Source of the DNA: Verrucomicrobiota bacterium
GTDB taxonomy: Bacteria; Verrucomicrobiota; Verrucomicrobiia; Limisphaerales; JANNEF01
DNA: 64,000 nt
Direction of reading: 5' to 3'
Assembly (NCBI GenBank): GCA_031378375.1
Contig: JANNEF010000105.1
Span: 693-64,692, forward strand
The notes below the pieces were generated by a model, which saw nothing but the letters and a program-made list of their open reading frames with translations, had not been told where the DNA came from and ran no database searches. A program made the translations under genes and the position numbers. This document shows, one piece after another, positions 10,953 through 56,990 of the stretch (the first letter of the stretch is position 1; every line of letters begins with the position of its first letter).

Positions 10953-11859
10953 GTTTCACCCTCCGGTCGAGCACGCTGTAGCTCAGATCCACCAGCAGGT
11001 TCAGCACGAGCAACAGCACCGCGTAAAGCAAGACGAGGCCGACGATCATCGGGTAATCCCGATTCTGCGTGCTGTTCACCAAAAACACGCCGATACCGGG
11101 AATGCGAAAAATGTTTTCGATGACGAATGATCCGGTCAGCAAATCCGCCAGCAATGGCCCCGCGTAGGACACCACCGGCAGCACGGCCAGCCGAAACGCA
11201 TGCTTGATCAGGATGGCCGGTTCGCTCAAGCCCTTCGCACGCGCGGTGGTGATGAAACCTTCGTGCAACGTGCTCAACATTCCCTCGCGCATGAGTCGCG
11301 CGACTCGACCGGAAAAGTAAAGTCCCAGTGCCAGCGTCGGCAGCACCGCGTGCAGCGGCGACTCCCACAACGCCACCGGCAGCCAGCCCAAGTGGATCGC
11401 GAAAACCATCACCAGCAAGGGCCCAACAACGAATCCGGGCACACACACCGCGAGGATGGCAAGGAAACTTCCCACCCAGTCCCCCCACTCGCCTTTGCGC
11501 ACCGCCGTGTAGAAACCAAGCGGGATGCCCACGCCCTGCGCGAAGCCGAACGCCAGCAAGCCCAGTATGAGTGACACCGGCAGACCCTGCGCAATGATGT
11601 CGTTGACGGTGTGGCTGCGGTATTTGAGCGACGGCCCAAAATCACCGCGCGCCAGGCCGCCGAGGTAACGCAAGTATTGTTGCCAGAGCGGCTCGTCGAG
11701 ATGGTATTTCGCCTTGAGATTGCGCTCAATGTCGGGCGTGGACGGCTCGCGCTCCTTGTCGAACGGCCCACCCGGCGCCACGCGCACCAGCGCAAACGCC
11801 AGCGCGCTGATGAGCAGCAGCAGCGGGAGGAGGAAGATGGCGCGCTTGAGGAAATACAT
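10945..11859 (-). CDS. Peptide/nickel-type ABC transporter permease (OppB/DppB-like)
   Basis: 304 aa. It has the typical N-terminus MYFLKRAIFLLPLLLLISALAFALVRVAPGGPF and the loop FITTARAKGLSEPAILIKHAFR. Confidence 0.88.
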   Translation of the reverse strand: MYFLKRAIFLLPLLLLISALAFALVRVAPGGPFDKEREPSTPDIERNLKAKYHLDEPLWQQYLRYLGGLARGDFGPSLKYRSHTVNDIIAQGLPVSLILGLLAFGFAQGVGIPLGFYTAVRKGEWGDWVGSFLAILAVCVPGFVVGPLLVMVFAIHLGWLPVALWESPLHAVLPTLALGLYFSGRVARLMREGMLSTLHEGFITTARAKGLSEPAILIKHAFRLAVLPVVSYAGPLLADLLTGSFVIENIFRIPGIGVFLVNSTQNRDYPMIVGLVLLYAVLLLVLNLLVDLSYSVLDRRVKHG

Positions 11860-11862
11860 GCC

Positions 11863-11966
11863 GATTAATCAGTGAGTCAGTAATCAGTAAACCAGTGGTG
11901 TGGCAGCCCGGGGCAGTTACTCCGTCCGCCGGATACTGACTCACCGATTACTGGATACTGGTTCAC
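11863..11966. repeat. CAGT-word palindromic element (copy in the opp operon)
   Basis: The left arm is GATTAATCAGTGAGTCAGTAATCAGTAAACCAGTGGTG. The right arm is GGATACTGACTCACCGATTACTGGATACTGGTTCAC, built of reverse-complement words. A ~30-nt spacer separates them. Confidence 0.8.
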
Positions 11967-13629
11967 TTCCGCGCTTCTTCCGTATCGCATACACCGGATG
12001 TTCATCAATCAGGTTGGGATGAATGCCCTCGATACGCGCGGAATCGTAAAAATGAATTCCGGCGTAAAAGTAGAGCGGGACGATGGGCAGTTCGTCGCGC
12101 ACGAGCAGCGTCTCGGCTTCCCGTAAAAACTTCTCGCGTAGTCTCGGGTCGGTCTGGCGATTACCCTCGCGCACCAATTCGTCGTAGCGCGTGCTCTTCC
12201 AGCCGGTGCGGTTGTTGCCGTTGTTGCTCATGAACATGTCGAGAAACGTGTTTGGATCGTTGTAGTCCCCGACCCAACTGCTGCGGCCCACGTCGTAGTC
12301 CAGCGCGCGCAACGCGACCAGATACACTTTCCACTCCGCCTGGCGCAATTCCATACGGATGCCCAGTTCCCGTTGCCACATCGCCTGGATTTCCACGCTG
12401 ATCTGCTCGTCGGTCTTGCCGGTGTTGAACAGGTACTGGAACACCGGAAACCCCTTGCCGCCGGGAAAGCCGGCCTGCGCCAGAAGCTTCCGCGCCTGAT
12501 CCGGATCGTAGTCCAGACCTGCGGGCGGATCGTAAACCGGCATTCCCCTGGGCGTGAAATGCGCCGCCACCCGCTCGCCGCCGCGCGTGATTTTTTCGAC
12601 GATGCGCCGCTTGTCCACCGCCAGCGCCAGCGCCCGGCGCACCCGCACGTCGTCGAAGGGCTTCCGCGTCACGTTGTAGCGGTAGAACAGCGTGCCGAGA
12701 TAATCAAACGTGTGGCAGTCCGGGCGGCGCCGCAACGCGTCCATCAACTGGCCGGGGACCAGCGACTTGTCCCAGATGATGTCCGCCCGGCCGGTGAGAT
12801 AGAGATTGATGGCCGTCATCGGCGAGTCCATCGAGAGAAAATCCACCACGGAACTGTGGACGTTCGCCGCGTCCCAGTAGCGCGGATTGCGGCGCACGCG
12901 GATGCGGTCCTGCAGCCGCCACTCGACCAGTTCGTACGCGCCGCTCACTGGCATCGGTGGCATCACGACCCAGCGATCGCCGTGCTTTTCGATGGCGAAC
13001 TTCGGCGCAACGGCAAGCGTCGGAAACGCGCACAGGTCCAGGAAGAACGGCGTGGGGCCAGTCAGTTCCGCCCGCACCGTGTGAGCGTCGAGCGCACGCA
13101 CGCCAACTTGTGCCGGATCTTTGATTCGGCCGCTGTTGAACTCCTCACCGTTCTTCAGGAAAAACAATTGTCCGGCGTAATCGGCGGCAGTGTTCGGGTC
13201 GAGCACTCGAATCCAGGAATAGACCACGTCCTCCGCCGTGATCGGCTGGCCGGTGGACCAGGCGGCATTGGTGCGCAGATGAAAAGTGTAGGTCGTGCCG
13301 TCCGGCGAAATCTCCCACCGGTGAGCCAGGCCCGGTTCGGGAGCCGCGTTGGTGGGATTGATGCGCGTCAATCCCTCGAAGAGCGCCCGCACTACGCGCC
13401 CGTCCGCCTGGCCAGTGATGATCGCCGGGTCGAGCGATTCCGGCTCCGCGCCGTTGATGATGACGAGGTCGGCGCGAGACGGAACGGCCGGGCGGGCGGA
13501 AAGGAGCGGCAGCAACAGGAGCGGCAGCAACAGGAGCAGCAGCAACGGCAGCGGGCGCACCGCGCACGACGCCCCCAAAAAACGAAACGCCCTCTTGAAA
13601 CTCAAGAGGGCGTCCGTGGAAAACTTCAT
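11941..13629 (-). CDS. ABC transporter substrate-binding protein, family 5 (OppA/DppA-like)
   Basis: 562 aa. A Leu-run signal peptide is followed by typical family-5 segments (INGAEPESLDP, WSTGQPITAEDVVYSW, RRALALAVDK). The last 8 codons and the stop lie inside repeat element 11863-11966. Confidence 0.85.
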   Translation of the reverse strand: MKFSTDALLSFKRAFRFLGASCAVRPLPLLLLLLLPLLLLPLLSARPAVPSRADLVIINGAEPESLDPAIITGQADGRVVRALFEGLTRINPTNAAPEPGLAHRWEISPDGTTYTFHLRTNAAWSTGQPITAEDVVYSWIRVLDPNTAADYAGQLFFLKNGEEFNSGRIKDPAQVGVRALDAHTVRAELTGPTPFFLDLCAFPTLAVAPKFAIEKHGDRWVVMPPMPVSGAYELVEWRLQDRIRVRRNPRYWDAANVHSSVVDFLSMDSPMTAINLYLTGRADIIWDKSLVPGQLMDALRRRPDCHTFDYLGTLFYRYNVTRKPFDDVRVRRALALAVDKRRIVEKITRGGERVAAHFTPRGMPVYDPPAGLDYDPDQARKLLAQAGFPGGKGFPVFQYLFNTGKTDEQISVEIQAMWQRELGIRMELRQAEWKVYLVALRALDYDVGRSSWVGDYNDPNTFLDMFMSNNGNNRTGWKSTRYDELVREGNRQTDPRLREKFLREAETLLVRDELPIVPLYFYAGIHFYDSARIEGIHPNLIDEHPVYAIRKKRGSEPVSSNR

Positions 13630-25038: not shown

Positions 25039-25659
25039 ATGGCCGCCACCAACCACGCTCTCATCGTCCCGCCGCCGTCGCCCGCCGCCGTCGCGGCGAC
25101 GAACAACATTCGCGCCATCAAACCGCCGGTGGAGATTCCCAACGACTGGGCGTGGCTGTGGTGGACGCTTGCGGCCGTCGCACTCATCGCGGCGGGGGTA
25201 TGGCTGTGGATTTGGTGGAAGCGAAAACATGCCCGCCCCGTCGCGGTCGTGGTTGTGCCGCCGCACATGCGCGCGAAGCAAAAACTGGCGGAGGCGCTGG
25301 CGCTCATTCACGATCCCCGCCTGTTCTGCATCGCGGTGTCGGACGCGCTGCGCTGGTATCTGGAGGAACGGTTCCGGCTCCACGCGCCGGAGCGGACAAC
25401 TGACGAGTTCCTCGTGGAGTTGCAATCCTCCAACGCGCTGCTGGCTGGTCAAAAGAGTGGACTGGGTGAATTCCTCCAAAACTGCGACCTGGTGAAGTTC
25501 GCCCGCTTTGAGCCGACGGAAGCCGCGCTGCGCGAGTTGCACGAGGCCGCGCTGCGACTGGTGGACGAAACGCAATACGAGCCTCCCGCTCCCGCGTCCG
25601 TCGGCAACGTGCCGCCACCCGATGCTGTCACGCACGACGCACCCCGCGCCACCCCCTGA
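25039..25659 (+). CDS. DUF4381 domain membrane protein
   Basis: 206 aa. It has IRAIKPPVEIP, a single TM segment (WLWWTLAAVALIAAGVWLWIWW) and CDLVKFARFEP. It occupies the usual position between DUF58 and BatA. Confidence 0.8.
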   Translation: MAATNHALIVPPPSPAAVAATNNIRAIKPPVEIPNDWAWLWWTLAAVALIAAGVWLWIWWKRKHARPVAVVVVPPHMRAKQKLAEALALIHDPRLFCIAVSDALRWYLEERFRLHAPERTTDEFLVELQSSNALLAGQKSGLGEFLQNCDLVKFARFEPTEAALRELHEAALRLVDETQYEPPAPASVGNVPPPDAVTHDAPRATP

Positions 25660-25660
25660 G

Positions 25661-26656
25661 ATGACCTTCGCGCATCCCTATTTTTTGTTGCTGTTGTTGC
25701 TGCTTCCGGTGATCGCGTGGCTGCGGGGCAAGCACGGCCCGCGGGCGGCGTTTCTTTATTCATCCGTGCAGTTGGTGCAGGATGTCTCCCACGTCAGCCG
25801 TTCGAGCGCGGGCCGGGTTTTGACGGCCCTGCGCTGGCTGACGCTGGCGTTGTTCATCGTGGGGCTGGCGCGGCCGCAACTGGTCGAGAGCGAGACCACC
25901 GTCAACGCCAGCGGCATTGACATCGTGCTGGCGGTTGATCTTTCCGGCAGCATGGAATCGGAAGACTTCACGCTCAAAAACCAACGCGTGAACCGCCTCG
26001 TGATCGCCAAGGATGTGTTGAAGAAATTCATCGAACGCCGCCCGGGCGATCGCATCGGGCTGGTGGCATTTGCCGGCAAGGCGTACATCGCCGCCCCGAT
26101 GACGCTCGACCACGGCTTCCTGCAACAAAACCTGGAGCGCCTCGCCCTGCACTCCATTGAGGACGGCACCGCCATTGGTTCCGGCCTGTCGGCTTCAATC
26201 AACCGGCTGCGCGATCTGAAATCCAAGAGCAAGATCGTCATCCTGATGACCGACGGACAGAACAACGCGGGCAAAGTCCCGCCGCTCACCGCCGCCGAGG
26301 CTGCGCAGACTCTGGGCGTGAAGGCTTACACCATCGGCGTCGGCACGCGCGGCACCGCGCCCATGCCGCGCATGAATGTCTTCGGCCAGAAAGTCTATGT
26401 GCAGGTGCCGGTGGACATTGACGAGGAGACGCTCCAGGCCATCGCGAAAAAAACCGGCGGCAAGTATTATCGCGCCGACAGCACGGACACCTTGCGCAAG
26501 ATTTACGACGAGATCGATCAACTGGAAAAGACCGAGGTCGAAGTGAAGAAGTATGTGCGCATCGAAGAACTGTTTTTCTGGGCGGTGGCGCCGGGGCTGG
26601 GGCTGCTGCTGCTGGAGATTTTGTTGAACAACACAATTTGGCGGAGGCTGCCGTGA
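25661..26656 (+). CDS. batA: VWA-domain membrane protein BatA
   Basis: Track ORF trimmed to the ATG at 25661 (MTFAHPYFLLLLLLLPVIAW). It has a VWA MIDAS motif (DIVLAVDLSGSM, ILMTDGQNN) and a C-terminal TM segment. Confidence 0.88.
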   Translation: MTFAHPYFLLLLLLLPVIAWLRGKHGPRAAFLYSSVQLVQDVSHVSRSSAGRVLTALRWLTLALFIVGLARPQLVESETTVNASGIDIVLAVDLSGSMESEDFTLKNQRVNRLVIAKDVLKKFIERRPGDRIGLVAFAGKAYIAAPMTLDHGFLQQNLERLALHSIEDGTAIGSGLSASINRLRDLKSKSKIVILMTDGQNNAGKVPPLTAAEAAQTLGVKAYTIGVGTRGTAPMPRMNVFGQKVYVQVPVDIDEETLQAIAKKTGGKYYRADSTDTLRKIYDEIDQLEKTEVEVKKYVRIEELFFWAVAPGLGLLLLEILLNNTIWRRLP

Positions 26657-26660
26657 GGGG

Positions 26661-26786
26661 AATAGTAATCAGTGGGTCAATAATCAGTGAATCAGTCACT
26701 GAGAAGCGAGGTTCACCGTCCCGCATAGCTGCGATCGCCATTGATCACTGGTTCACTGATTACTGACCTACTGACCCACTGACAAC
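26661..26786. repeat. CAGT-word palindromic element (batA-batB intergenic copy)
   Basis: The left arm is AGTAATCAGTGGGTCAATAATCAGTGAATCAGTCACTGAG. The right arm is TTGATCACTGGTTCACTGATTACTGACCTACTGACCCACTGAC, e.g. TCAGTGGGTCA pairs with TGACCCACTGA. The spacer is ~37 nt. Confidence 0.85.
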
Positions 26787-26789
26787 GCC

Positions 26790-28685
26790 ATGCGCTTTGA
26801 ACATCCCGAACTGCTGTGGTTCCTCCTGCTCGCCGTGCCGGCGCTGACCGCCTTTCTCTGGTGGGCCTGGCGGCGGAAGCGGGCGCTTATCGCGCAGTTC
26901 GTCCGGTCGCGGTTGCTGGCGAACCTCACAGTGGGCGTTTCGACCACGCGGCAAAAAGCGCGGCTGGCTTTGCTCGTCGCCAGCGTCGCGCTGCTCATCG
27001 TGGCGCTGGCGCGGCCCCAGTGGGGTTTCGACTGGGAGGAGGCGCGGCAGCGCGGGCTGGACATCATCGTGGCGATTGACACCTCGCGCAGCATGCTGGC
27101 CGAGGACGTCGCGCCCAACCGCCTGGAGCGCGCCAAACTCGCCGCGATGGATTTGAAAAAACTCGCGCGCATGGACCGGCTGGGCCTGGTCGCCTTCGCC
27201 GGCAGCGCCTTCCTGCAATGCCCGCTCTCCACCGACGACGAGGCGTTCCGCCAAAGCGTGAACGCGCTCGATGTGAACATCATTCCCCAGGGCGGCACGG
27301 CGCTGGCGGAGGCAATCCAGTCGGCCTTGAGCGCCTTCAAGGAAAAGAGCGACAACCACAAGGTGCTCGTGCTGTTCACCGACGGCGAGGATCACGACGG
27401 CAGCGCCCTGGCCGCCGCCAAACAGGCGGCGAAGGACGGGCTGCGCATCTTCACCGTCGGCGTGGGCACGCCGAACGGCGAGTTGCTGCGCCTCCCCGGC
27501 TCGAAGGGGCGGAGCGAGTTCATCAAGGATACGTCGGGCAACGTGGTGAAGTCGCGGCTGGATGAGCAGTTGCTCCGGCAGATGGCGCAGTCGGCGGAAG
27601 GATTTTACCTGCTCCTGAGCGGAGCCAACACGATGGATGTGCTCTACGAGCGCGGCCTGGCGCCGCTGCCGAAGGCGGAGTTCTCGGCCAAGCGGGTGAA
27701 GCGCCCCCACGAGCGTTACCAATGGCTGCTGGGATTGACGATGGTGCTATTGTTGGTCGAGATGTTTTTGCCGGAACGAAAGATCGCACGAGACGCCGGG
27801 GTGATGACCGAAGGCGGCGTCAGCGCCGGACTGCCGAAGGCGGTCGCGCTGTTGCTGCTGCTCGCGTGGCCGGGATTCGCCACCGCCTCGCCTGCCGGCG
27901 CGTTGAAAAAGTACGAGAACGGGAAATACGAGTCGGCGCTGCTGGAATATCAGCGGCTGATCAAGAAGAAGCCCGGCGATCCGCGGCTGGAATTCAATGC
28001 GGGCGCGGCGGCGTATCAGGCGCAGGATTTCCAGGAAGCGTTGAAGCACCTGAATTCCTCGCTCCTCACTCCCGATGTGCCGCTACAGCAGCGCGCCTAT
28101 TACAATCTCGGCAACACGCAGTATCGGGTGGGTGAGGACGCGGCCGAACCACAGAAAAAGCAGGAAGTGTGGGAACAGGCGGTGACGAGCTACGAGAGCG
28201 CGCTCAAACTGAACCCGGCGGACGAAGACGCGAAGTTCAACCTCGACCTGGTGAAGACGAGGCTGGAGGAACTCAAGAAGCAGCAGCAACAGCAGCAGTC
28301 CAAGGATGGCAAGGACGACAAGGACAAAAAGGGCGATCAGAAGAAGGACGAGCAATCCAAGAACGACCAGAAGCAGGACGGAAAGAAGTCCGACGAGCAG
28401 AAACAGCAGGAGCAGCAAAAACAGGAACAGCAGAAGCAGCAGGAGAATCAGGAGGCGAAGAAAGACGGGCAGAAGCAGGACGAACAAAAACAGGCGCAAC
28501 AGAACCAACCCGACGACAAATCAGACAAACCGGAAGACGCCCAGGCTGGCCACACGATGATGGTGCGGATGACCCCGAAGGAAGCGCAACAGTTGCTCGA
28601 CGCGCAGAAGGGCGAGGAGAAGGCTATGATTTTTCAGCCACAGTTGAAGACCAACCGGAACGAGCGCGTGTTCAAGGACTGGTGA
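26790..28685 (+). CDS. batB: VWA + TPR membrane protein (BatB/BatC-type fusion) with Lys/Gln/Glu-rich tail
   Basis: 631 aa. Starts MRFEHPELLWFLLLAVPAL and has a VWA MIDAS motif (DIIVAIDTSRSM, LFTDGEDHDG). It also has a TM segment, TPR repeats (YENGKYESALLEYQRLIKKKP, AYYNLGNTQY) and a ~90-aa K/Q/D/E low-complexity region. Confidence 0.88.
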   Translation: MRFEHPELLWFLLLAVPALTAFLWWAWRRKRALIAQFVRSRLLANLTVGVSTTRQKARLALLVASVALLIVALARPQWGFDWEEARQRGLDIIVAIDTSRSMLAEDVAPNRLERAKLAAMDLKKLARMDRLGLVAFAGSAFLQCPLSTDDEAFRQSVNALDVNIIPQGGTALAEAIQSALSAFKEKSDNHKVLVLFTDGEDHDGSALAAAKQAAKDGLRIFTVGVGTPNGELLRLPGSKGRSEFIKDTSGNVVKSRLDEQLLRQMAQSAEGFYLLLSGANTMDVLYERGLAPLPKAEFSAKRVKRPHERYQWLLGLTMVLLLVEMFLPERKIARDAGVMTEGGVSAGLPKAVALLLLLAWPGFATASPAGALKKYENGKYESALLEYQRLIKKKPGDPRLEFNAGAAAYQAQDFQEALKHLNSSLLTPDVPLQQRAYYNLGNTQYRVGEDAAEPQKKQEVWEQAVTSYESALKLNPADEDAKFNLDLVKTRLEELKKQQQQQQSKDGKDDKDKKGDQKKDEQSKNDQKQDGKKSDEQKQQEQQKQEQQKQQENQEAKKDGQKQDEQKQAQQNQPDDKSDKPEDAQAGHTMMVRMTPKEAQQLLDAQKGEEKAMIFQPQLKTNRNERVFKDW

Positions 28686-46992: not shown

Positions 46993-48240
46993 ATGAATCA
47001 CGAACCATCGTTTTGGAAGGCCGGACACTTGCCCACGTTGATCGGCGCGTTCCTTTGCTTCTGCGTTTGTTCGATGTGCTGGCTGCTGCTCGGCGGGCTG
47101 GGCAATCACATCGGGGCGGACCTCGGCTTGACGCCGTTGCAAAAGGGATTGCTCGCCGCCGTTCCGTTGCTGGGCGGCGCGCTGTTGCGGCTGCCGTTCG
47201 GCTGGCTCACCGACGCCATCGGCGCGAAGCGGACCGGATTGCTCGTGCTCGCGGCGACCGCCGTGCCGGTGCTGATGGGCTGGCTGTGGGCGCAGTCGTT
47301 CGCGAGCCTGCTGGTCGTGGGCTTTCTCCTCGGCGTCGCGGGCGCGAGTTTCGTCGTTGCGCTGCCGATGGCCAGCCGCTGGTATCCACCGCAATTTCAG
47401 GGACTGGCCATGGGCCTGGCGGGACTCGGACTGACGGGCACATTGTTCGCGACATTTCTTGGACCGCGGCTGGCGGAACGGTTTGGCTGGCAGAATGTCT
47501 TCGGCCTCGCGCTGATTCCCCTGGCGGTCGTCGCAGTTTTGTTCCTGGTGTTTACCAAGGACGCGCCCTGCGTTGTGCGCCGCCAAAGCCTCGCGGACTT
47601 CGCGGGCATGTTGCGCGAGCGCGACATGATTTTGTTCAGCCTGTTCTACGGTGTGACGTTTGGCGGGTTCGTCGGCTTCGCGAGCTTTCTTTCCATCCTC
47701 CTGGGCGACCAATACGGCCTCACCAAAGTCCGCGCCGGCGAACTCGCCGCGCTTGGCGTGATGGCCGGCAGCCTGGTGCGTCCGCTCGGCGGATTGCTCG
47801 CGGACAAGTTCGGCGGCATCCGCATGCTCAACGTGCTGTTCGGCGTGGTCGCGCTGCTCGCGATGGGTGTGGCGCAATTACCCGCCCTGCCCATCACGGT
47901 CGGGCTGTTCGTGGTCGCGATGGCCTGCCTCGGCCTCGGCAATGGCTCGGTCTTTCAGCTCATGCCGCATCGTTACGGCACGCGCGTCGGTGTGGCCACG
48001 GGCATTCTCGGCGCGGCGGGGAGCTTCGGCGGATTTTTTCTGCCGACGCTGCTTGGCTGGCTCAAGCAAACCACCGGCACTTACAGCGGCGGCATGGCGG
48101 TGCTGGCGGCGCTGGCCGTCGTTGCGCTCATCGTGCTGGCGGTGGTGCAGACGGAATGGGTCGGCGTCTGGATCGGCAAACACGGCCGCGTCGAATCGCG
48201 GCCGGCGACCCCGCCAATCAGGGAAGCCAACATCGCCTGA
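46993..48240 (+). CDS. narK: MFS nitrate/nitrite transporter (NarK/NasA-type)
   Basis: 415 aa with 12 predicted TM segments. GADLGLTPLQKGLLAAVPLLGGALLRLPFGWLTD and GAAGSFGGFFLP resemble the NNP-family signatures. Confidence 0.85.
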   Translation: MNHEPSFWKAGHLPTLIGAFLCFCVCSMCWLLLGGLGNHIGADLGLTPLQKGLLAAVPLLGGALLRLPFGWLTDAIGAKRTGLLVLAATAVPVLMGWLWAQSFASLLVVGFLLGVAGASFVVALPMASRWYPPQFQGLAMGLAGLGLTGTLFATFLGPRLAERFGWQNVFGLALIPLAVVAVLFLVFTKDAPCVVRRQSLADFAGMLRERDMILFSLFYGVTFGGFVGFASFLSILLGDQYGLTKVRAGELAALGVMAGSLVRPLGGLLADKFGGIRMLNVLFGVVALLAMGVAQLPALPITVGLFVVAMACLGLGNGSVFQLMPHRYGTRVGVATGILGAAGSFGGFFLPTLLGWLKQTTGTYSGGMAVLAALAVVALIVLAVVQTEWVGVWIGKHGRVESRPATPPIREANIA

Positions 48241-48247
48241 TTCGCCG

Positions 48248-49960
48248 ATGCCCAGCCCGCCTTCAACCAGACAACCCTTGCGCGAATCCGACACGAACGA
48301 CGGGCGCACGCTGATTGACGACTTGCTCGCCGAGCAGCGTCAACTCACCGCCGTCGAACAATTCTCCCGCGCGCACGACGCCCACGAAGTCCACGGCCGC
48401 CGCTACCGCGATCTGCTTCCCGCCAATGCGCCCGCGCCCGGACAGCAATACGCCTTCGAGGTGGACCTCGACCAGTGCAGCGGCTGCAAGGCGTGCGTGA
48501 CCGCGTGCCATTCGCTCAACGGCCTCGACGACGACGAGACCTGGCGCAGCGTCGGCGCGTTGCACTCCGCCAATGTGCGCCAGCCGCTCAAACAGATCGT
48601 CACCACGGCCTGTCATCATTGCGTGGATCCCGGTTGCCTCACCGGCTGTCCCGTGCTCGCCTACGACAAAGACCCCGTCACGGGCATCGTTCGCCACCTG
48701 GATGACCAGTGCATCGGCTGCCAGTATTGCGTGATGAAATGTCCCTACGAGGTGCCGCAGTACTCGAAGACTCGCGGCATCGTGCGCAAGTGCGACATGT
48801 GCAGCTCGCGCCTCGCCGTCGGTGAAGCCCCCGCGTGCGTGCAAGCCTGCCCGAACGAGGCGATCCGCATCACGGTGGTGGATCAGGCGAAGGTGCGCGG
48901 GAAGTATCGCAGGCTAAAATCCGAAGGCCGAAATCCGAAATCCGAATCAAATCCGAAGGCCGATAACCAAAACTCGCCATTCGGATTTCGGAATTCTTTC
49001 GGGCTTCGGGCTTCAGATTTCGGATTTCACAACTCCTTCCTCCCCGACTCGCCGAATCCCGCCATCACGCTTCCGACGACCCGTTACGTTTCCAAGCGCG
49101 CCCTGCCCGGCGACCTCGAAGCCGCTGACGCCCATGAACTCCGCCGCGCGAAGCCGCATCCGCCGCTCACCCTCATGCTGGTGCTCACCCAACTCGGCGC
49201 GGGGCTGGCGCTGATGGACGCGCTCACGGGCGGCGCGGCGCGGATGCTGGCAGCCGTCGCCCTCGCGGCCAGCGCCCTCGGCGTCGTCGCGGGCACGCTG
49301 CACCTGGGCCAGCCGCTCAAGGCGTGGCGCAGTTTTCTCGGCTGGCGCAAATCATGGCTGAGTCGCGAGTTGATTGCCTTCGGCGCTTTCGTCGGCGTGC
49401 TCGGCTCGCATCTGGCCATTGGCCGTCCGCTCTCCGCCGGTCTCGCCGCGCTCACCGGACTCCTCGCGGTCGCGTGCTCGGCGATGGTTTACGCGGACAC
49501 GCGCCGGCCGTTCTGGAACGCGCCGATGACATTTGGAAAATTCCTCGGCACCACGCTGTTGCTCGGCGGGGCGGGGTCCCTGTTGCTGTCGGCGCTTGCC
49601 ACGAATCCACTCCTGCCGCGCCCTCTGGTGGTCGCCGTGATCGTGCTCGGCACCATCTTCAAGCTGGCCGTGGAGAATCGCATCTTCCGCTTTCTCGTGG
49701 ACGAACAAGACCCGCACCTCACCGCTCTCAACAAGACCGCCCTGCTGCTCAACGGCCTGTTCGGCCGGCTCTCGCGCGGTCGCGTGGCTTGCGCCCTCGC
49801 GGGTGGAGTGGTGCTTCCGGCGTTGATGCTTGTCACCGGCGCGGGCGTCGCCTTGCCCGCGTTGGCGCTGACGTTGTGCGTCGCGGGTGAACTCATCGAG
49901 CGCCATCTCTTTTTCGTCGCCGAGGTCGCGCCCAAAATGCCGGGAGGCCGGGGAGTATGA
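48248..49960 (+). CDS. Fusion of a 4x[4Fe-4S] ferredoxin (DmsB/NrfC-like) and a DmsC-like polytopic membrane anchor
   Basis: Track ORF trimmed to the ATG at 48248. It has four Cys clusters ([41 protein letters not shown]...CVQACP). About 8 hydrophobic helices follow, from residue ~300. The stop overlaps the nasA start (ATGA). Confidence 0.8.
48915..49030. repeat. AATCCGA-word palindromic element (in-frame copy inside the FeS/DmsC gene)
   Basis: The left arm is TAAAATCCGAAGGCCGAAATCCGAAATCCGAATCAAATCCGAAGGCCGA, followed by a 15-nt spacer. The right arm is ATTCGGATTTCGGAATTCTTTCGGGCTTCGGGCTTCAGATTTCGGATTTCAC. It is translated as [39 protein letters not shown]. Confidence 0.85.
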
Positions 49961-52362
49961 AGACCACGGGAGCCACAACCAGGCGCGCGGCTGTGGTCGC
50001 AGACCCAGCCGCAGCGCCCACGCAACGACAACGAGCTGCGGCTGATCCTACGGACCCAGCCGCGCTCCAATCGAACTCCCTTCTCCGTCAATGGAGCGGC
50101 CCGCTGTCCTCCGACCTCACGTTGCATCCCGGCGACTTTGGTCTCGGCAGAATCCCCGCCCGCCTTCGCCCCGACGCCACCACACGCTCCATCTGCGGCT
50201 TCTGCTCCACGGGCTGTTCGCTTGACGTTCACCTGCAATCCGGCGTGGCCGTGAACCTCACGCCCACGGTGGACTATCCGGTGAATCTGGGCATGGCGTG
50301 CCCGAAAGGCTGGGAGGCGCTCACCTGTCTGGCCGCGCCGGATCGCGCCACACAACCGCTTTTGCGCAATCCCGACACCGGCAAACTCGAACCCACCGAC
50401 TGGGACGAAGCGATGCAGGTCTTCACGCTGAAGTTCAAGGCGCTGATGGATCAGCACGGGCCGGAGAGTGTGGCGTTTCTCAGCACCGGCCAGATTTGCA
50501 CGGAGGAGATGGCGCTCCTCGGCGCGCTTTGGAAGTTCGGCATGGGCGCGTTGCACGGCGACTCGAACACGCGCCAGTGCATGGCCACCAGCCACGTTGC
50601 CTACAAGCAGAGCTTCGGCTTCGACGCGCCGCCCTACACCTACGCGGACTTCGAGGAGTCGGACACGCTCGTCTTCATCGGCTCGAATCTCTGCATCGCG
50701 CACCCGATTCTCTGGCAGCGCGTCCTGCGGAACAAAAAAAATCCCGCCCTCATCGTCATTGACCCGCGCAAGACGGAGACGGCGATGAACGCGACCCAGC
50801 ACGTCGCGCTGCGGCCCAAGTCCGACCTCACGCTGCTCTACGGCCTGGCGAACCTGCTGGTGCAGGGCGGCTGGATTGACCGCGCGTTCATCGAGCGCAG
50901 CACGACGGGATTCGCGGAGTTCGCGGAGTTCGTGCGGCAGTTCACACCCGACAAAGTTGCGGCGGAGACCGGCTTGACCGTGGGCGAATTGTCCCGCGTC
51001 GCCGAGACCATCGCGAAGGGCAAGGCCGTGAGTTTCTGGTGGACGATGGGCGTGAACCAGAGCCACGAGAGCACGCGCACCGCGCAGGCCGTCATCAATC
51101 TCGCGCTGATGACCGGCAACATCGGCCGTCCCGGCACCGGCGCGAACAGCATCACCGGCCAGTGCAACGCGATGGGCTCGCGCCTGTTCGCCAACGCCTC
51201 GGGACTGCTTGGCGGGCGCGACTTCCTCAACGCTGAACATCGCGCCGAGGTATCGCGCGCGTTGCACATCGCGCCGGAAAGCATTCCCGCGAAGAACTCG
51301 CTCGCCTACGACCAAATCATGCAGGGCATCGCCGAGGGCCGGATCAAGGGCCTATGGGTCATCGCCACGAACACGGCGCACTCGTGGATTGATTCCGCCC
51401 GCGCCTGTGGCGCACTCGACAAGCTGGAATTTCTCGTCGTGCAGGACATGTTCACGACCACCGACACGGCGAAACGCGCGCATCTGATTTTGCCCGCCGC
51501 CGGCTGGGGCGAGAAGGAGGGCACGTTCATAAACAGCGAGCGGCGCTTCGGTCACATCAAGAAAGTGTCACGCGCGCCCGGCCAGGCGTTGAGCGATTTT
51601 AACATCTTCCGCCTGGTAGCCGAATACTGGGGCTGCGCCGGGATGTTCAGCCAGTGGACTTCGCCGCAGGCCGTTTTCCAAATCCTGAAAAGACTTTCCG
51701 CCGGTCGCCCGTGCGACATCACGGGCATCGAAGACTACCGGCATCTGGATGCGAGCGGCGGGATTCAGTGGCCGCTGGCAAAAGAACGTGAGTCAGTAAT
51801 CAGTGAGCCAGTGACCAGTGAACGCGAGATGGCGACGGGTTCCGCTACTGATTCACTGAATACTGGCGCACTGATTACTGATCACTCTCCCCGCGAACGC
51901 CGCCTCTTCGCCGACGGCAAGTTCTTCACTCCCGATGGCCGCGCAAAATTCCTCTTTGACCCGCCACGTCCCGTCGCCGAGCCGGTGGACAGCGAGTATC
52001 CGTTCGTGCTGTTGACCGGACGCGGCACGAGCGCGCAATGGCACACAAACACGCGCACCGGCAAGTCCGCCGTCTTGCGCACGCTGTATCCGGCCAACCC
52101 CTACGTGGAGATCCATCCGAAAGACGCCGCGCGATTGCGAATCGAACCAAACACGACCGTCGCCGTCATCTCACGACGCGGGCGCGTTGAGTGCGCCGCG
52201 GTGGTCACACCCATCGTGCAGCCCGGACAGGTCTTCATCCCGATGCATTACGACCTGACGAACCAATTGACCCGCGCCGAGTTCGATCCGCACTCGCGCC
52301 AGCCCAGCTACAAACATTGCGCAGTGCGAATTGAACCGACGCGCAACGGTTCCAACAAATGA
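49957..52362 (+). CDS. nasA: Molybdopterin (bis-MGD) oxidoreductase, assimilatory nitrate reductase type (NasA/NarB-like)
   Basis: 801 aa with an N-terminal FeS motif ([10 protein letters not shown]...CPKG) and MGD-binding segments ([14 protein letters not shown]). The C-terminal barrel has [20 protein letters not shown] and the tail [10 protein letters not shown]. Confidence 0.85.
51788..51887. repeat. CAGT-word palindromic element (in-frame copy inside nasA)
   Basis: The left arm is GTGAGTCAGTAATCAGTGAGCCAGTGACCAGTGAAC, followed by a 23-nt spacer. The right arm is TACTGATTCACTGAATACTGGCGCACTGATTACTGATCACTC. It is translated as [33 protein letters not shown]. Confidence 0.85.
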
Positions 52363-54233
52363 GCGCCACGGAGTCCAACATCGTTGAGTTGCCCAAGTCG
52401 CCCGGACGCGAATTCACGCCCGAGCAAAAGGAATATCTCGCCGGCTTCATGGCAGGCATCGCGCAGCGCGGAATGATCCCCTTCGTCGGCGCGATGCCGG
52501 ATGGCCGCCTCACCGCTGACCCGGCGCACGGCGGCGACAATCTCGCCGCGCCGCGCGAGGAGACGGTGTTCGGCACGCCGCTCTCGGAGTTATGCAAACA
52601 GGAGCGATGGAAGTACGAGGAAAACCCGCTGGACGTTTGGGACAAGCTGCTCGCCTGCGCCGAGCAGGACAAACTACCCGACGAGGCGGACACTTTTCGC
52701 TTTCGGGCGCACGGCCTGTTCAACGTCGCCCCGGCGCAGAACGCCTTCATGCTGCGCTGCCGCATCCCCGCCGGCGAGTTGACGGCGGCGCAACTCAAGG
52801 GCCTCGCCGACATCGCGGAGGAATGGGGCGGCGGCTGGGCGGACATCACCACGCGGTCGAATATCCAGATTCGACAAATTGCGCCGCGCCACATCATCAA
52901 GGTGCTGACGCGGCTGCAGGAACTCGGACTCACCGCGCGCGGTTCCGGCGTGGACAACATTCGAAATGTCACCGCGTCGCCCACGGCGGGCTTCGACGCG
53001 GCGGAGTTGATTGACACGCGCCCGCTGGCGCACGCGCTGCACCACTACATCCTCAATCACCGCGACCTCTACGGGCTGCCGCGCAAGTTCAACGTCGCCT
53101 TCGACGGCGGCGGCGCGGTGAGCGCGGTGGCGGACACGAATGACATCGGGTTCGTGGCGGTACGAGTGGCGCAGGCTTCCAGCCTGAGTCCGGCGGGCTT
53201 GCCGCCCGCGAATCTGGGGCAGGGTGCCCCAAGCGGCAGGCTGGAAGCCTGCCCCACTATCGAGCCCGGCACCTACTTCCGCGTCGAACTCGCCGGCATC
53301 ACCGGGCACCGGCAGTTCGCGAAGGACGCGGGCATTCTCGTGAAGCCGGGCGAATGCCTGGCCGTCGCCGCCGCGATGATTCGCGTGTTCTGTGAGCACG
53401 GCGACCGTACCGACCGCAAGAAGGCGCGGCTGAAATACCTGATTGATAAGTGGGGCATCCCGAAGTTCCTCGAAGCGACGCAAGCGAAACTCGCCTTTGC
53501 GCTCCGTCATTTTCCGTTGGAGCAGTGCGAGCCGCGCCATCCGGCGGTGAAGCACGGGCACATCGGCGTGTTCAAGCAGGCGCAGCGCAACTTGAACTAC
53601 GTCGGCGTCGTCATCCCCGTGGGCCGGATGCAGGCGCGGCAAATGCGCCGGCTCGCCGACCTCGCGGCAAATTACGGCTCTGGCCACCTGCGCCTGACGC
53701 CGTGGCAGAATCTGCTATTGCCGAACATCCCCGACGGTTTCGTCGAGACGGTGAAGCGCAATCTCCTCCGCATCGGTTTCCACTATGAAGCCAGCACCAT
53801 CGCCGGCGGCCTCGTCGCCTGCACCGGCAACACCGGTTGTAAGTGGGCCGCGACGAACACCAAGGGCCAGGCGGTGGAGCTGGCGCGCTATCTGGAAAAG
53901 CGCGTGCAACTCGACCAGCCGATCAACATCCATCTCACCGGCTGCCCGAACTCCTGCGCGCAGCACTACATGGGCGACATCGGCCTGCAAGGGGCGCGCG
54001 TCACGTTGAGCGGCGAGTCGGTGGAGGCGTATCACGTCGTGCTTGGTGGCGGTTACGGCGCGGAGCAGGCGGTAGCAAAGGAAGTGTTCAAAGGCATCCC
54101 GTTCTCCGCGCTGCCGGAGCTGCTGGAGCGGGTGCTCATTGTTTACCAGGAGAAGCGGGCGGCGGGCGAGAGCTTCGCCGCGTTCACGCGCCGGCATGAA
54201 GTGAAACAACTGCAAGAGATGTTTTCTGAGTGA
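52359..54233 (+). CDS. nirA: Sirohaem/[4Fe-4S] nitrite (or sulfite) reductase hemoprotein, NirA-type
   Basis: 624 aa. It has duplicated NIR_SIR halves and the cluster/sirohaem Cys motif ([11 protein letters not shown]...[17 protein letters not shown]). The start overlaps the nasA stop (ATGA). Confidence 0.85.
53171..53252. repeat. Inverted-repeat element inside nirA (in frame)
   Basis: Perfect 16-bp inverted repeat GCAGGCTTCCAGCCTG (53171-86) / CAGGCTGGAAGCCTGC (53237-52). It encloses two small hairpins (GCGGG-CTTGCCG-CCCGC and GGGGCA-GGG-TGCCCC). It is translated as [28 protein letters not shown]. Confidence 0.8.
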
Positions 54234-56017
54234 TGGAAACCAACTTGATTCCCTACCTGCCCGACACGGCGCCGTTCACGCCGGAGCAACGAGCCTATTT
54301 GAACGGGCTGTTCGCCGGCCTGTTCGCCCACGCGCCGCGCGCCACCAACCCGGCGCCTGCCGCCAAGCCACTGCTACCGCTGACCATTCTGTTTGGCTCG
54401 CAGACCGGCAATGCGGAGGCGCTCGCCAAGCGCGTCGCCAAGGAAGCCGGCAAGCAGGGCTTCGCGCCGACGATCTTTGACGCGGCGCAATATCCGCGCG
54501 AGCAACTCAAGACCGAGAAGCATCTGCTGCTCATCACCAGCACCTACGGTGACGGCGAACCGCCGGACAACGCAAAGGACCTGTGGGAATTTCTCACCGC
54601 CACCACCGCACCCGCGCTGCCGGAGTTGAAGTTCTCCGTGCTGGCCCTGGGCGACACGAACTACGAAAAGTTCTGCGAGTGCGGGAAAAACTTCGACCGC
54701 CGCTTCCATGAGCTGGGCGCACACCGGGCGCATCCGCGCGTGGATTGCGACGTGGACTTTGAGGAGCCATTCGGGAACTGGCTGGCCGGCGCGTTGGGCG
54801 CGCTGGCAGGCGGTGGGGGAGTAATCAGTGAATCAGTAATCAGTAGGTCAGTGACCAGTGCGCCCGTCTCTGCCACTGATTCACTGGTTACTGGTTACTC
54901 GCGCGCCCACCCGTTCCCCGCCCCGCTCGTCGCCAACCGCCGGCTCAACGCTCCCGGCTCGGGCAAGGACACGCGGCATTTTGAAATCGCACTCGACGGC
55001 AGCGGCTTGACCTATGAAGTCGGCGACGCGCTGGGGGTGGTGCCGGCGAATTGCCCGGAACTCGCGGACGAGATGCTTCGCACGCTCGGCTGCACCGGCG
55101 GGGAAGCGGTGCCCGGCGCGAAGGGTGGCGAAGTCCCGCTGCGCGAGGCGCTGTTGCGGCATTACGACATCACGAAGATTGCCCAGCCGCTCTTGCAGGC
55201 AATGGCAGAGCGGAGCGGGGACGAGTTGCTCAAGCAACTCACCGCGCCCGGTGTGAACGGCGAGTTGACGAAATTTCTCTGGGGCCGCGAGATTGTTGAC
55301 CTGTTGCTGGCGCACCCGCGCGCGAAGTTCGCACCGATGGAATTTGTCGGCCTGCTCAAGAAACTTCAGCCGCGGCTCTACTCCATTTCCTCCAGCCCCA
55401 AGGCACATCCCGGCCAGGTGCATCTCACTGTCGGGGTCGTGCGCTACGAATCGCTGGGCCGGGCGCGCAAAGGCGTGTGCTCCACGTTCCTGGCGGAGCG
55501 CGCGGGCGGCGGCGCGGCGGCGCCGGTCTTCGTCCACACGAACAAAGGCTTTCGCCCGCCCGCCGATGGCAGCCGTCCGATGATCATGGTCGGGCCGGGC
55601 ACGGGCATCGCGCCGTTCCGCGCTTTTCTGGAAGAGCGTCGCGCCGTCGGCGCGACGGGAAAGAACTGGCTGTTCTTCGGCGACCAACGGTCGGAGATGG
55701 ATTTCCTCTACCGCGAAGAGCTGGAGGCGATGCATCGCGACGGCACGCTGGCGCGGCTGGACACGGCTTTCTCCCGCGATCAGGAAGAAAAGATTTACGT
55801 GCAACAGCGAATGCTCGAACACGCCACCGAACTGTTCACCTGGCTGGAGGCCGGCGCGCATTTCTACGTCTGCGGCGACGCCAACCGCATGGCGAAGGAC
55901 GTGGACCGGGCGCTGCACCAGATCATCGAGCAAGCCGGCGGACGCACGGCAGAGCCGGCGGCGGAGTACGTGAAGAAGATGCAGGCGGAGAAGCGGTATC
56001 AGCGGGATGTGTATTGA
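54230..56017 (+). CDS. Diflavin reductase, sulfite reductase flavoprotein CysJ-like (flavodoxin + FAD/NADPH domains)
   Basis: 595 aa with an FMN domain ([32 protein letters not shown]) and an FAD/NADPH domain ([42 protein letters not shown]). Start is GTG 54230 or ATG 54233; both overlap the nirA stop. Confidence 0.88.
54821..54900. repeat. CAGT-word palindromic element (in-frame copy inside the cysJ-like gene)
   Basis: The left arm is GTAATCAGTGAATCAGTAATCAGTAGGTCAGTGACCAGTG, followed by a 13-nt spacer. The right arm is CACTGATTCACTGGTTACTGGTTACTC. It is translated as [27 protein letters not shown]. Confidence 0.85.
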
Positions 56018-56063
56018 AGCGTGAAACGGAAAACAAGCGCGACGACAATCACGCTTTCACGTT

Positions 56064-56990
56064 TCACGTCTCCATGCCCGGCAAATCCCGCCGGTCCATC
56101 CGCATCCCCGCCGCCACGTTGCGGCACAGCCGGCAGAAGGTTTCCTCCACCAGACTCAGCCGGCGGCCCGCGAGCGAGGCGATCACCCACTGACGGCGCA
56201 ACGGTTTCGGGCCGAGCGGGCGCATCCGCAGCGTGCCGCGCGCGAGTTCCTTGTCGGCGGTCCACGGCGCGAGCACGGAGACGCCAAGGTTGAGCTTCAC
56301 CAGTTCCTTGATCGCCTCGATGCTGGCGATCTCCATCACGGTGCTGGGCACCAGATCGAGGCCGCGGAAGTATTCGTCCACCAGTTGCGCCGTCAGGCTG
56401 GCGCGCTGGTAAAGGATGAGCGGCTGCGTGCGCAAATCATCGCGCGCAATGATCTCGCCGGCGGCCCACGGATGCGACGGCGCACAGACGAAGAGCAGCT
56501 CATCCTTGCACACGGGACGGACCTCCAGATCCGGCAGTCGTTCGGGCGCGACCCCCAGCGCGAGATCGATCCGGTTCTGCTGAATCAACTCCACCATCTC
56601 CGGCATGTCGCCCGATTCGACCTGCAGGGAGAAATTCGCGGACGACTTCTTCAACTCGCGGATGACGGCCGGCAAAATGTACTGGCAGGCGGAAGCCGCC
56701 GCGCCGATGCGCAGGCGCGTCTGGCCCCATTTGCCGAGGCGCTTGAGCGATTCCTCGGCGGCGGCGAGCGCCTGCATGGGTTGTTGGATTTGAGCCAGGA
56801 GCTGTTCGCCCGCCTGGTTAAGCAACATTTTTTTGCCCGCGCGGTCGAACAAGCGACAGCCGAGCTGCGTCTCGAGCGTCTTCAACCCGTGGCTGATGGC
56901 CGACGGCGTGAGATGCAGTTGGGCGGACGCCGTCACGAGGCTGCCGTGGCGGGCGACGGCGGAAAACATTCTGAGCTGGCGCGTGTCCAC
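56064..56990 (-). CDS. LysR-family transcriptional regulator
   Basis: 308 aa. It has an N-terminal wHTH (MFSAVARHGSLVTASAQLHLTPSAISHGLKTLE) and a LysR substrate-binding domain. It is convergent with the nitrate operon. Confidence 0.9.
   Translation of the reverse strand: MDTRQLRMFSAVARHGSLVTASAQLHLTPSAISHGLKTLETQLGCRLFDRAGKKMLLNQAGEQLLAQIQQPMQALAAAEESLKRLGKWGQTRLRIGAAASACQYILPAVIRELKKSSANFSLQVESGDMPEMVELIQQNRIDLALGVAPERLPDLEVRPVCKDELLFVCAPSHPWAAGEIIARDDLRTQPLILYQRASLTAQLVDEYFRGLDLVPSTVMEIASIEAIKELVKLNLGVSVLAPWTADKELARGTLRMRPLGPKPLRRQWVIASLAGRRLSLVEETFCRLCRNVAAGMRMDRRDLPGMET

Follow-up and report, generated by a model that had tools for sequence, protein, structure and literature searches.

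The nasA gene for an assimilatory nitrate reductase, encoded in a 64-kb stretch of DNA from a Verrucomicrobiota bacterium (contig JANNEF010000105.1; this whole stretch of 64,000 nucleotides (nt) is referred to as the window), contains an in-frame palindromic element of 100 nt whose arms are built of short words with a CAGT core. We consider it probable (about 0.75) that this element is a member of a palindromic repeat family that is dispersed and non-autonomous. Judged from its sequence, it is best read as a palindromic repeat of the same kind as the Rickettsia palindromic elements (RPEs) and the intragenic repetitive extragenic palindromes (REPs), which is tolerated by its host protein and is probably translated as a disordered loop. 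Repeats of this kind have been described before as RPEs and intragenic REPs, including a report for Opitutus terrae. The new parts are the word-built arms, with a 15-nt frame-preserving unit, and the behavior of the NasA connector as a recurrent sink; the latter is the most interesting addition.

A CAGT-word hairpin in the nasA reading frame

The homologs of the host open reading frame (ORF) (n = 7996) are annotated with the Molybdop_Fe4S4, Molybdopterin and Molydop_binding domains, and several of them, from Verrucomicrobiota, are named assimilatory nitrate reductase. The best relative with a solved structure is the periplasmic nitrate reductase NapA (2NAP, E = 8e-104). The original prediction, which was made from the letters of the window and a list of its ORFs, placed a CAGT-word palindrome inside this gene and described it as adding about 33 residues between two conserved segments, and both points were confirmed. 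The element (copy c3 in Table 1) is in frame, its peptide reads ESVIS…TDHS, and it is flanked by GGIQWP (residues 601–606) and ERRLFADG (647–654), both of which are invariant in 39 aligned orthologs. The insert site aligns with the segment of NapA between W552–P553 and R581–F583, which, by the published domain limits, is the connector into the C-terminal domain IV. The nasA copy occupies the connector leading to the C-terminal Molydop_binding domain. An AlphaFold2 model of NasA, calculated with the 39-sequence alignment of close homologs only, had a mean predicted local distance difference test (pLDDT) score of 59.6; residues 593–658 scored below 50 and were mostly coil, which weakly suggests that residues 612–644 form a disordered loop.

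Copy c3 is a single, long, strong and imperfect hairpin. Its two arms (51793–51822 and 51852–51881, 30 nt each) are 87% complementary. The minimum free energy of the RNA was −53.8 kcal/mol (z = −7.2), and 0 of 200 shuffled sequences folded as well; as DNA the element gave z = −7.8, and the observed energy was again reached by no shuffle. The arms consist of direct 15-nt repeats (families D2 and D3), each comprising one 8-nt and one 7-nt word with the CAGT core. This 15-nt unit (consensus, GTAATCAGTGARTCA) equals 5 codons; two of its frames contain TAA or TGA and the third reads V-I-S-E-S, while by palindromic symmetry the opposite arm and the opposite strand read T-D-S-L-I-T. The two remaining plus-strand frames of c3 contain 4 and 5 stop codons, and exactly one frame is open on each strand. 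Because the unit has stops in two frames, a CAGT copy can survive in a gene only in one phase, with its arms kept in register by the loop.

Four copies of the family in the window

Exactly four CAGT copies, with both arms present in each, were found within the window using word density and an nhmmer arm profile (Table 1). The sequence ATCAGTGA occurred 5 times, against 0.99 expected. The original prediction had named copies in nasA, in a cysJ-like gene and in oppA; all three were recovered, and a fourth exists between the batA-like and batB-like genes. It had further stated that the three named copies use the same phase. This was right for nasA and the cysJ-like gene but only partly right for oppA, because c1 is mostly intergenic and meets oppA, a minus-strand gene, as a gene-end overlap on the opposite strand. 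Only the final 7 codons of oppA and its stop codon (EPVSSNR-stop) are part of c1, read in the palindromically equivalent phase; the SBP_bac_5 domain of the OppA-like protein covers amino acids (aa) 97–473. Copy c4 sits in the hinge of the cysJ-like flavoprotein, between Flavodoxin_1 (aa 53–176) and FAD_binding_1 (aa 224–420).

The genic copies c3 and c4 are open throughout, whereas the intergenic copies c1 and c2 are closed in all frames because their loops set both arms out of phase. The 7/8 word alternation is present in all four copies, intergenic ones included, so that the 15-nt unit belongs to the element itself and does not result from coding selection. Copy c3 was absent from the listing of one inverted-repeat scan of the whole window, which was not relied on for c3, but was recovered by two other analyses.

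Several smaller observations concern the ends of these copies. In c1 and c2, the ACTGA-word arm ends 8–9 nt upstream of an ATG (oppB on the minus strand, 11859–11866; batB on the plus strand, 26782–26790, where the arm stops 8 nt short of the start codon), and no Shine-Dalgarno sequence is visible upstream of either start. The right terminus of c4 (54893–54901, …GGTTACTCG) overlaps the codons of a conserved Y-S-R motif (TAC TCG CGC), and the family usually ends on the right in …ATTACTCC, which many in-gene copies translate as (I)TDYS; the overlap may reflect microhomology at the junction or coincidence. A comparison of the whole window with Rfam gave 0 hits at the gathering threshold or above. 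An intrinsic terminator was rejected as an identity for the element, as a T-run follows none of the four copies and two of them lie inside ORFs.

Table 1. Coordinates of the host gene, the CAGT copies and other palindromes in the window
Feature	Positions	Strand	Location	Remarks
nasA-type assimilatory nitrate reductase catalytic subunit ORF, host gene	49957..52362	+		801 aa; from ORF list and homolog domains
CAGT copy c1, eroded	11864..11968	.	between oppA-like (stop 11941, minus) and oppB-like (start 11859, minus)	DNA z −1.4
CAGT copy c2, intergenic	26657..26782	.	between batA-like (25508–26656) and batB-like (26790–28685)	DNA z −5.9
CAGT-word palindromic element c3	51788..51887	+	in nasA, aa 612–644 of NasA	left arm ~51788–51823, loop ~51824–51845, right arm ~51846–51887
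CAGT copy c4	54816..54903	+	in-frame in cysJ-like flavoprotein ORF (54230–56017)	DNA z −5.2
REP-doublet-type palindrome GCGGCTGTGG…CCCAGCCGC, unrelated to CAGT	49982..50068	+	in-frame, NasA N-terminal extension, aa 9–38	
Unrelated palindrome AGTGGCGCAGGCTTCCAGCCTG / CAGGCTGGAAGCCTGCCCCACT	53165..53258	+	in-frame, nirA-like ORF 52359–54233, aa 269–300	z −6.8
Heptamer-word palindrome, GAAATCC words	48923..48996	+	in-frame, ORF 47867–49960 upstream of nasA	z −2.6
Heptamer-word palindrome, TTTCACG words	56013..56075	.	directly after cysJ-like stop codon	z −2.1

Fillings of the NasA connector in orthologs

The connector was compared in an alignment of 120 close homologs of NasA (69–100% identity) and, at the DNA level, in 80 nasA loci from GTDB species representatives. 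Among the 120 homologs, the segment from QWP to ERRLF is hypervariable (~11 to ~91 aa) and exceeds 17 aa in 101, and many of its fillings look like translated palindromes of other word families. Across the 80 genomes the linker ranged from 9 to 66 aa. A basal state of 9–13 aa was found in Sorangium, Planctomycetota and many Verrucomicrobiota, and linkers of at least 27 aa frequently formed strong hairpins (z as low as −10). At least 10 linker-filling hairpins show a 7-nt arm periodicity with differing words (among them GCGGAAT, GGCAGAA, GAGGGTT, GAGATGA, CCGGAAG and GTCACCN), and other fillings are classical REP-like palindromes.

The closest ortholog (P0002/L002, 86% identical) carries an unrelated hairpin in the same codon window (GGAGCGCGGATGTGGTCGCAGACCCAGCCGCAGC…, −72 kcal/mol), and a more distant one (P0096/L001, 74%) carries a different hairpin of the CAGT family in the connector. 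In the clade that shares 83% identity or more with the NasA of the window, the connector is either empty or occupied by at least six unrelated palindrome families, giving seven linker states (empty, CAGT, LWSQ, AECG, LQVE, LTPALSP and NGERAG), and these are interspersed when the orthologs are ordered by core-sequence similarity. The insertion boundaries are spread over ~10 codons after QWP, and eroded CAGT remnants with recognizable words were observed in nasA linkers such as those of L015, L016 and L051. Because the basal linker has 9–13 aa, many orthologs lack the insert and the closest ortholog carries another hairpin, the insert appears to be secondary rather than ancestral, at a site that has been used repeatedly. 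These data agree with the original description of a dispersed palindromic element within a conserved protein, since a consensus is shared across sites and genomes and the element is absent from many orthologs; the repeated use of the site by other palindrome families was no part of that description. Conservation of the insert in distant NasA/NarB proteins without palindromy was not observed in the orthologs compared; the basal linker has 9–13 aa.

Large insertions in NasA cluster at four places, namely the connector, a position after residue ~478–481, the N-terminal extension and the C-terminus. At the second of these places, an additional insertion hotspot that follows P0001 residues 478–481 (IATNxxHSW, insertion, LDKL), ~12 of the 120 orthologs have 30–90 extra residues; these inserts are of the types LTPALSPGEREKRSPS…LSPLPGGEGQGEGER or AAGILPAVEPGFQPGGK…PGGKMPPSTSGRMP, which are translated palindromes of other families.

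Distribution and phase of the CAGT family

CAGT copies were also present in other genomes with nasA loci (L001, L016, L018 with three copies, L027 and L037). The cysJ-like hinge is occupied in L018 and L027 as well, directly before the conserved YSRxNPFPA; in total this hinge is occupied in only 3 of 17 cases, far below the NasA connector. Further copies lie in dnaE of L018 and at the NasA N-terminus of L016. When metagenome contigs were scanned with a 20-base pattern, at least 120 stretches matched, and 80 of these loci were analyzed. They contained 74 distinct CAGT copies, of which 29 were strict hairpins and, among the matches listed, 45 were one-armed tandem arrays; the listed matches came from soil and freshwater contigs with a GC content of 0.39 to 0.73. 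The copies share the consensus AGTAATCAGTGAATCAGTAATCAGTRRRTCAGTGAYCAGTGA – loop – TCACTGATTACTGACYYACTGATTACT, in many cases enclosed by GGGG…CCCC, and the termini of the element are AGTAATCAGT…ACTGATTACT. In a DNA alignment of the copies, the row for L141 had wrong coordinates and was disregarded. Since the family is present in many independent assemblies, an assembly artefact was rejected.

The metagenome copies also bear on the reading frame. Strict 7/8 arms keep a frame open in 44 of 44 cases, against 18 of 30 for other spacings, including 7-7 steps (Fisher p = 4e-6). CAGT copies are strongly depleted inside genes, and among the matches listed ~9–12 of the 74 lie inside long ORFs. In-gene copies in plausibly real genes were stop-free in all cases, and ~14 of 17 read …SVIS…LITD(YS)…. 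The original claim that one insertion phase survives in genes is thus upheld by these copies, although phase alone does not decide survival, as the loop length must also hold both arms in phase. Translational bypass, or an intron-like excised segment, was rejected as well: in-gene copies are always open, both intergenic copies of the window are closed, and it can therefore be argued that ribosomes read through the element.

By Pfam, the in-gene copies were placed at inter-domain linkers or termini. The boundary of PSCyt1 and PSCyt2 carries a CAGT hairpin in three independent contigs (L141, L153 and L154), and further sites are the boundary of CoA_binding and Ligase_CoA, a LutB–LutC fusion junction, ThiC and DnaE. 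In the three PSCyt1-PSCyt2(-PSD1) proteins the hairpin is at the same position, 1–8 residues before PSCyt2, and the protein of L153 contains a second CAGT copy farther along. In eight soil contigs with a GC content of ~0.54 (L085, L089, L103, L123, L125, L129, L132 and L157), a CAGT left arm is followed by another word family, AGGAGCTAGGAGCCAGAATCCAGGAGC…, with no inverted partner, which suggests modular or chimeric combinations of word arrays.

Relation to known repeats

RPEs are in-frame palindromic repeats in Rickettsia genes (Ogata et al. 2000; summaries in PMC10969869 and PMC3733652). RPEs and the CAGT element are both dispersed palindromic repeats (RPE, ~100–150 bp) that lie in frame in unrelated housekeeping genes and encode a peptide compatible with protein function; both have copies in genes and in spacers, and RPEs are likewise without a known transposase. 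The CAGT element differs in its host phylum, Verrucomicrobiota, presumably in its sequence, in that RPE arms are not tandem 7/8-nt words, and in its intragenic share, which is ~1 in 8 of the metagenome sample among the matches listed, versus nearly half for RPEs. A feature that defines RPEs, in-frame palindromic insertion into functional protein genes at tolerated positions, was found for the CAGT element. Its sequence, made of CAGT words, presumably falls outside RPE-1 to RPE-10.

Intragenic REP dimers encode 20–30 aa, and their highest count was reported in a Verrucomicrobium, Opitutus terrae (Di Nocera et al. 2013, PMC3733652); REPs have been noted at about the same recB site in two Xanthomonas species (for REP dimers and REPINs; PMC3733652, PMC3116915). 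Similarly to REP dimers and REPINs, which include GTAG- and CGTC-tagged REPs (Bertels and Rainey 2011, PMC3116915; Di Nocera et al. 2013, PMC3733652), the CAGT element is a hairpin of ~100 nt formed from two inverted units, has many dispersed copies, is mostly extragenic with a minority in genes, and shows no target-site duplication. However, a REP unit is an imperfect palindrome of 20–40 nt with its own stem-loop, whereas the CAGT arms do not self-fold; in addition, there is no terminal GTAG or CGTC tag, GTAG being only internal and in only some CAGT copies. Because of these two differences, the element falls outside the REP/REPIN class. No REP-associated tyrosine transposase (RAYT) was seen near CAGT copies in 148 flanking ORFs and in the 64 kb of the source genome, the window ORFs not having been scanned exhaustively. 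CAGT-family strings and a nitrate reductase entry were not found in the supplements of Di Nocera 2013 (PMC3733652).

The words themselves recall the direct repeats of the heptamer TAACTGA in Beggiatoaceae, Cyanobacteria and Bacteroidetes (MacGregor 2015, PMC4679880) and the cyanobacterial short tandemly repeated repetitive (STRR) sequences. These heptamer arrays share with the CAGT element the ACTGA/TCAGT core, tandem 7-nt words and the translations LITD… and SVIS…; in the TAACTGA repeats, too, stop codons limit the placement of arrays in genes, the phylogenetic distribution is broad and patchy, and, in Beggiatoaceae, intergenic copies are found directly upstream of start codons (PMC4679880). 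The TAACTGA repeats, however, are direct one-way arrays with only one inverted set in the BOGUAY genome (PMC4679880), whereas the CAGT element consists of two inverted arrays forming a hairpin, with 7/8 alternation, a 15-nt frame-preserving unit and Verrucomicrobiota hosts. With regard to the head-to-tail single heptamer of TAACTGA and STRR arrays, the CAGT arms are tandem words around an ACTGA/CAGT core, but the word length switches between 7 and 8 nt and the sequence is not constant.

[quoted passage not shown] In the CAGT element, by contrast, the inverted repeat covers essentially the whole element, and it cannot be classed as a MITE because it lacks a target-site duplication. A parent insertion sequence (IS) with matching terminal inverted repeats was found in none of the loci examined. 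In the searchable literature no description of a CAGT hairpin family was found, and a string search returned only the TAACTGA paper (PMC4679880), which is not proof that the family is undescribed.

Proposed origin and alternatives

We propose that the CAGT element was inserted secondarily into nasA and would be co-transcribed and translated with it, giving a low-complexity and probably disordered surface loop of ~33 residues that the enzyme tolerates; the insert would then decay neutrally into ordinary linker sequence. A filter of phase and loop length allows only in-phase copies with arms in register to persist in genes. Within genomes, the family might spread through an unlinked HUH/Y1 enzyme (RAYT or IS200-like) acting in trans on single-stranded hairpin DNA, with no target-site duplication. 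This enzyme class is a conjecture, to which we give slightly less than even odds; the lack of a target-site duplication and the all-hairpin structure would fit single-strand mobilization. The word arrays also grow and shrink through replication slippage. In two metagenome copies (L113, 9453–9598, and L127, 7246–7408) the left flank and one CAGT arm are the same letter for letter, yet the adjoining (TGGTTAC)/(GGGTTAC) array differs between them in length and variant, which speaks directly for expansion and contraction of 7-nt word arrays by slippage. As for other vehicles, no transposase recurs among the 148 ORFs flanking the metagenome copies, which in a Pfam census were housekeeping genes only. 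A scan of viral contigs gave one match only, on the same contig as metagenome locus L155, and a phage vector was rejected.

Several points weigh against this proposal. A mobilizing enzyme, a target-site duplication or a target motif was found neither in the window nor at the nasA loci or the metagenome copies; no consistent direct repeat flanks the copies, and a 5-nt GAACG lies near both sides of c3 but is not adjacent to it. The nearest ortholog is only 86% identical and no near-identical pair of strains with and without the insert was among the sequences compared, so that the evidence for mobility is not direct. Translation of the NasA insert is argued solely from the conservation of its open frame, and the AlphaFold2 model, given its low mean pLDDT, is too poor to place the loop relative to the molybdenum bis-molybdopterin guanine dinucleotide (Mo-bisMGD) funnel. 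The very high occupancy of the NasA connector relative to that of the cysJ hinge is a further difficulty, and something besides passive tolerance may be at work. Together with a deletion ratchet, tolerance can account for this gap, but targeting or benefit may also lie behind it. Finally, the CAGT family is found at homologous positions in proteins that are only 60–75% identical (NasA, CysJ-like and PSCyt proteins), which could instead reflect long-term retention with the hairpin maintained.

Occupancy of this kind would be expected if the connector and other linkers were actively targeted, for example by hairpins entering pre-existing hairpins, palindromes or particular DNA structures. Such a true insertion hotspot is compatible with the identity proposed for the element and alters how it arrived. 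At least 8 unrelated palindrome families fall within the same ~10-codon window, the linker is expanded in most close orthologs and the closest of them has a different hairpin at the same place. Moreover, the fillings of L051 and L052 are chimeric or nested, a palindrome in L137 and L109 runs into unique flank as if inserted into an existing stem, and the targeting of REPs by IS elements has a precedent (ISPpu9, PMC12288879). Nevertheless, the insertion boundaries are imprecise, the empty sites have no conserved palindrome or motif, a ratchet of easy insertions and rare precise in-frame deletions also yields high occupancy, and the remaining in-gene copies are all at linkers whose sequences are unrelated, in agreement with a selection filter. 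We therefore regard active targeting as unlikely. The very high occupancy across the NasA proteins of the Planctomycetes–Verrucomicrobia–Chlamydiae (PVC) group might also be taken as a sign of adaptive function, with an mRNA hairpin (pausing before the C-terminal cap domain, or stabilizing the transcript) or a longer connector (for Mo-bisMGD loading) being selected and palindromes serving as raw material. The concentration of strong palindromes in the nas cluster would suit this idea, as would the ACTGA words that intergenic copies place 8–9 nt upstream of starts, given the proposal that TAACTGA repeats in a like position have a translational role (PMC4679880). Yet many orthologs, close relatives included, function with a linker of 9–13 aa; the hairpins decay, many long linkers having z near 0 and eroded remnants being recognizable; the filling is conserved in neither sequence nor length; and the same elements occur in unrelated genes and spacers. 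An adaptive role is accordingly very unlikely in our estimation.

A local origin, in which slippage and inverted duplication by template switching made the palindrome in situ, possibly from a CAGTGG seed in the IQWP codons, appears marginally less probable still. The codons ATT CAG TGG of the conserved GIQWP do resemble the CAGT word, word arrays clearly change by slippage (L113 versus L127), and one-armed tandem arrays make up the larger part of the metagenome copies listed. The copies in the window and in other genomes, however, share a long specific consensus, termini included, which goes far beyond a CAGT seed; unrelated families fill the same site in orthologs with the same IQWP codons; and the element begins 5 codons from CAGTGG. 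The insert is also in frame and lies between conserved motifs, as would an ordinary conserved loop of NasA, a lineage-specific protein feature with incidental DNA palindromy. This explanation is already refuted, and we give it almost no weight, because no shuffled sequence folds as well, members of the family are also found in intergenic spacers and unrelated genes, and orthologs lack the insert or carry other palindromes. A copy of a dispersed palindromic repeat, tolerated at the connector, thus remains the preferred reading.

Significance of in-frame palindromic repeats

In-frame palindromic repeats are among the few documented routes from selfish DNA to new bacterial peptide segments, and so far Rickettsia has been their best-known source, with Opitutus terrae a second that was treated briefly. 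The present data add a mechanistic rule with statistical support, in which the 15-nt word unit leads to one open frame, one phase and compatible loop lengths; a family that is widespread in environmental Verrucomicrobiota, with in-gene copies at domain boundaries; and a connector, in an enzyme central to nitrogen assimilation, that has been refilled repeatedly by unrelated hairpins. This connector offers a natural system for measuring the insertion, tolerance and decay of such elements. In PVC proteins, moreover, the inserts inflate and blur alignments, domain limits and predicted structures, and their recognition aids annotation.

A broader generalization, which we rate as doubtful and rather less probable than the HUH/Y1 conjecture, is that inter-domain connectors of PVC proteins (NasA to the C-terminal cap domain, the FMN/FAD hinge of CysJ-like proteins and the PSCyt1/PSCyt2 linker) are recurrent sinks or hotspots that have been colonized independently by heptamer-word palindromes of at least 8 word families. 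If so, hairpins would be generated or inserted by a shared mechanism that is directed by structure and independent of sequence, or a hairpin or a long flexible linker would confer a selective benefit; decaying selfish hairpins would then be a major source of new disordered linkers in PVC phyla.

Other palindromes in the nas cluster

The nas cluster of the window contains five in-frame palindromes of four families and one more just past the cysJ-like stop codon, and ~8 of the ~10 good palindromes of the window fall within this cluster (47.3–56.8 kb). The palindrome in the N-terminal extension of NasA has a z of −5.75 and folds as two separate stem-loops (seen for 49978–50072), and its family is the filler of the nasA linker in the closest ortholog, L002. 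The palindrome in the nirA-like gene has 22-nt arms that are 95% complementary; the NIR_SIR match of this ORF comprises 181 aa for 154 profile positions, and the palindrome accounts for ~28 extra residues inside it. The GAAATCC-word palindrome upstream of nasA has 18-nt arms with 94% complementarity, and its ORF appears, by synteny with L001 and L002, to encode a Fer4_11/DmsC-like protein. Among the nasA loci compared, four contigs from metagenome-assembled genomes (L013, L014, L027 and L042) carry nasA clusters of the Verrucomicrobia type but bear the record titles Akkermansia muciniphila, Bifidobacterium sp. or Kapaibacterium sp., for which mistakes of binning or labelling in the public records are the probable cause.

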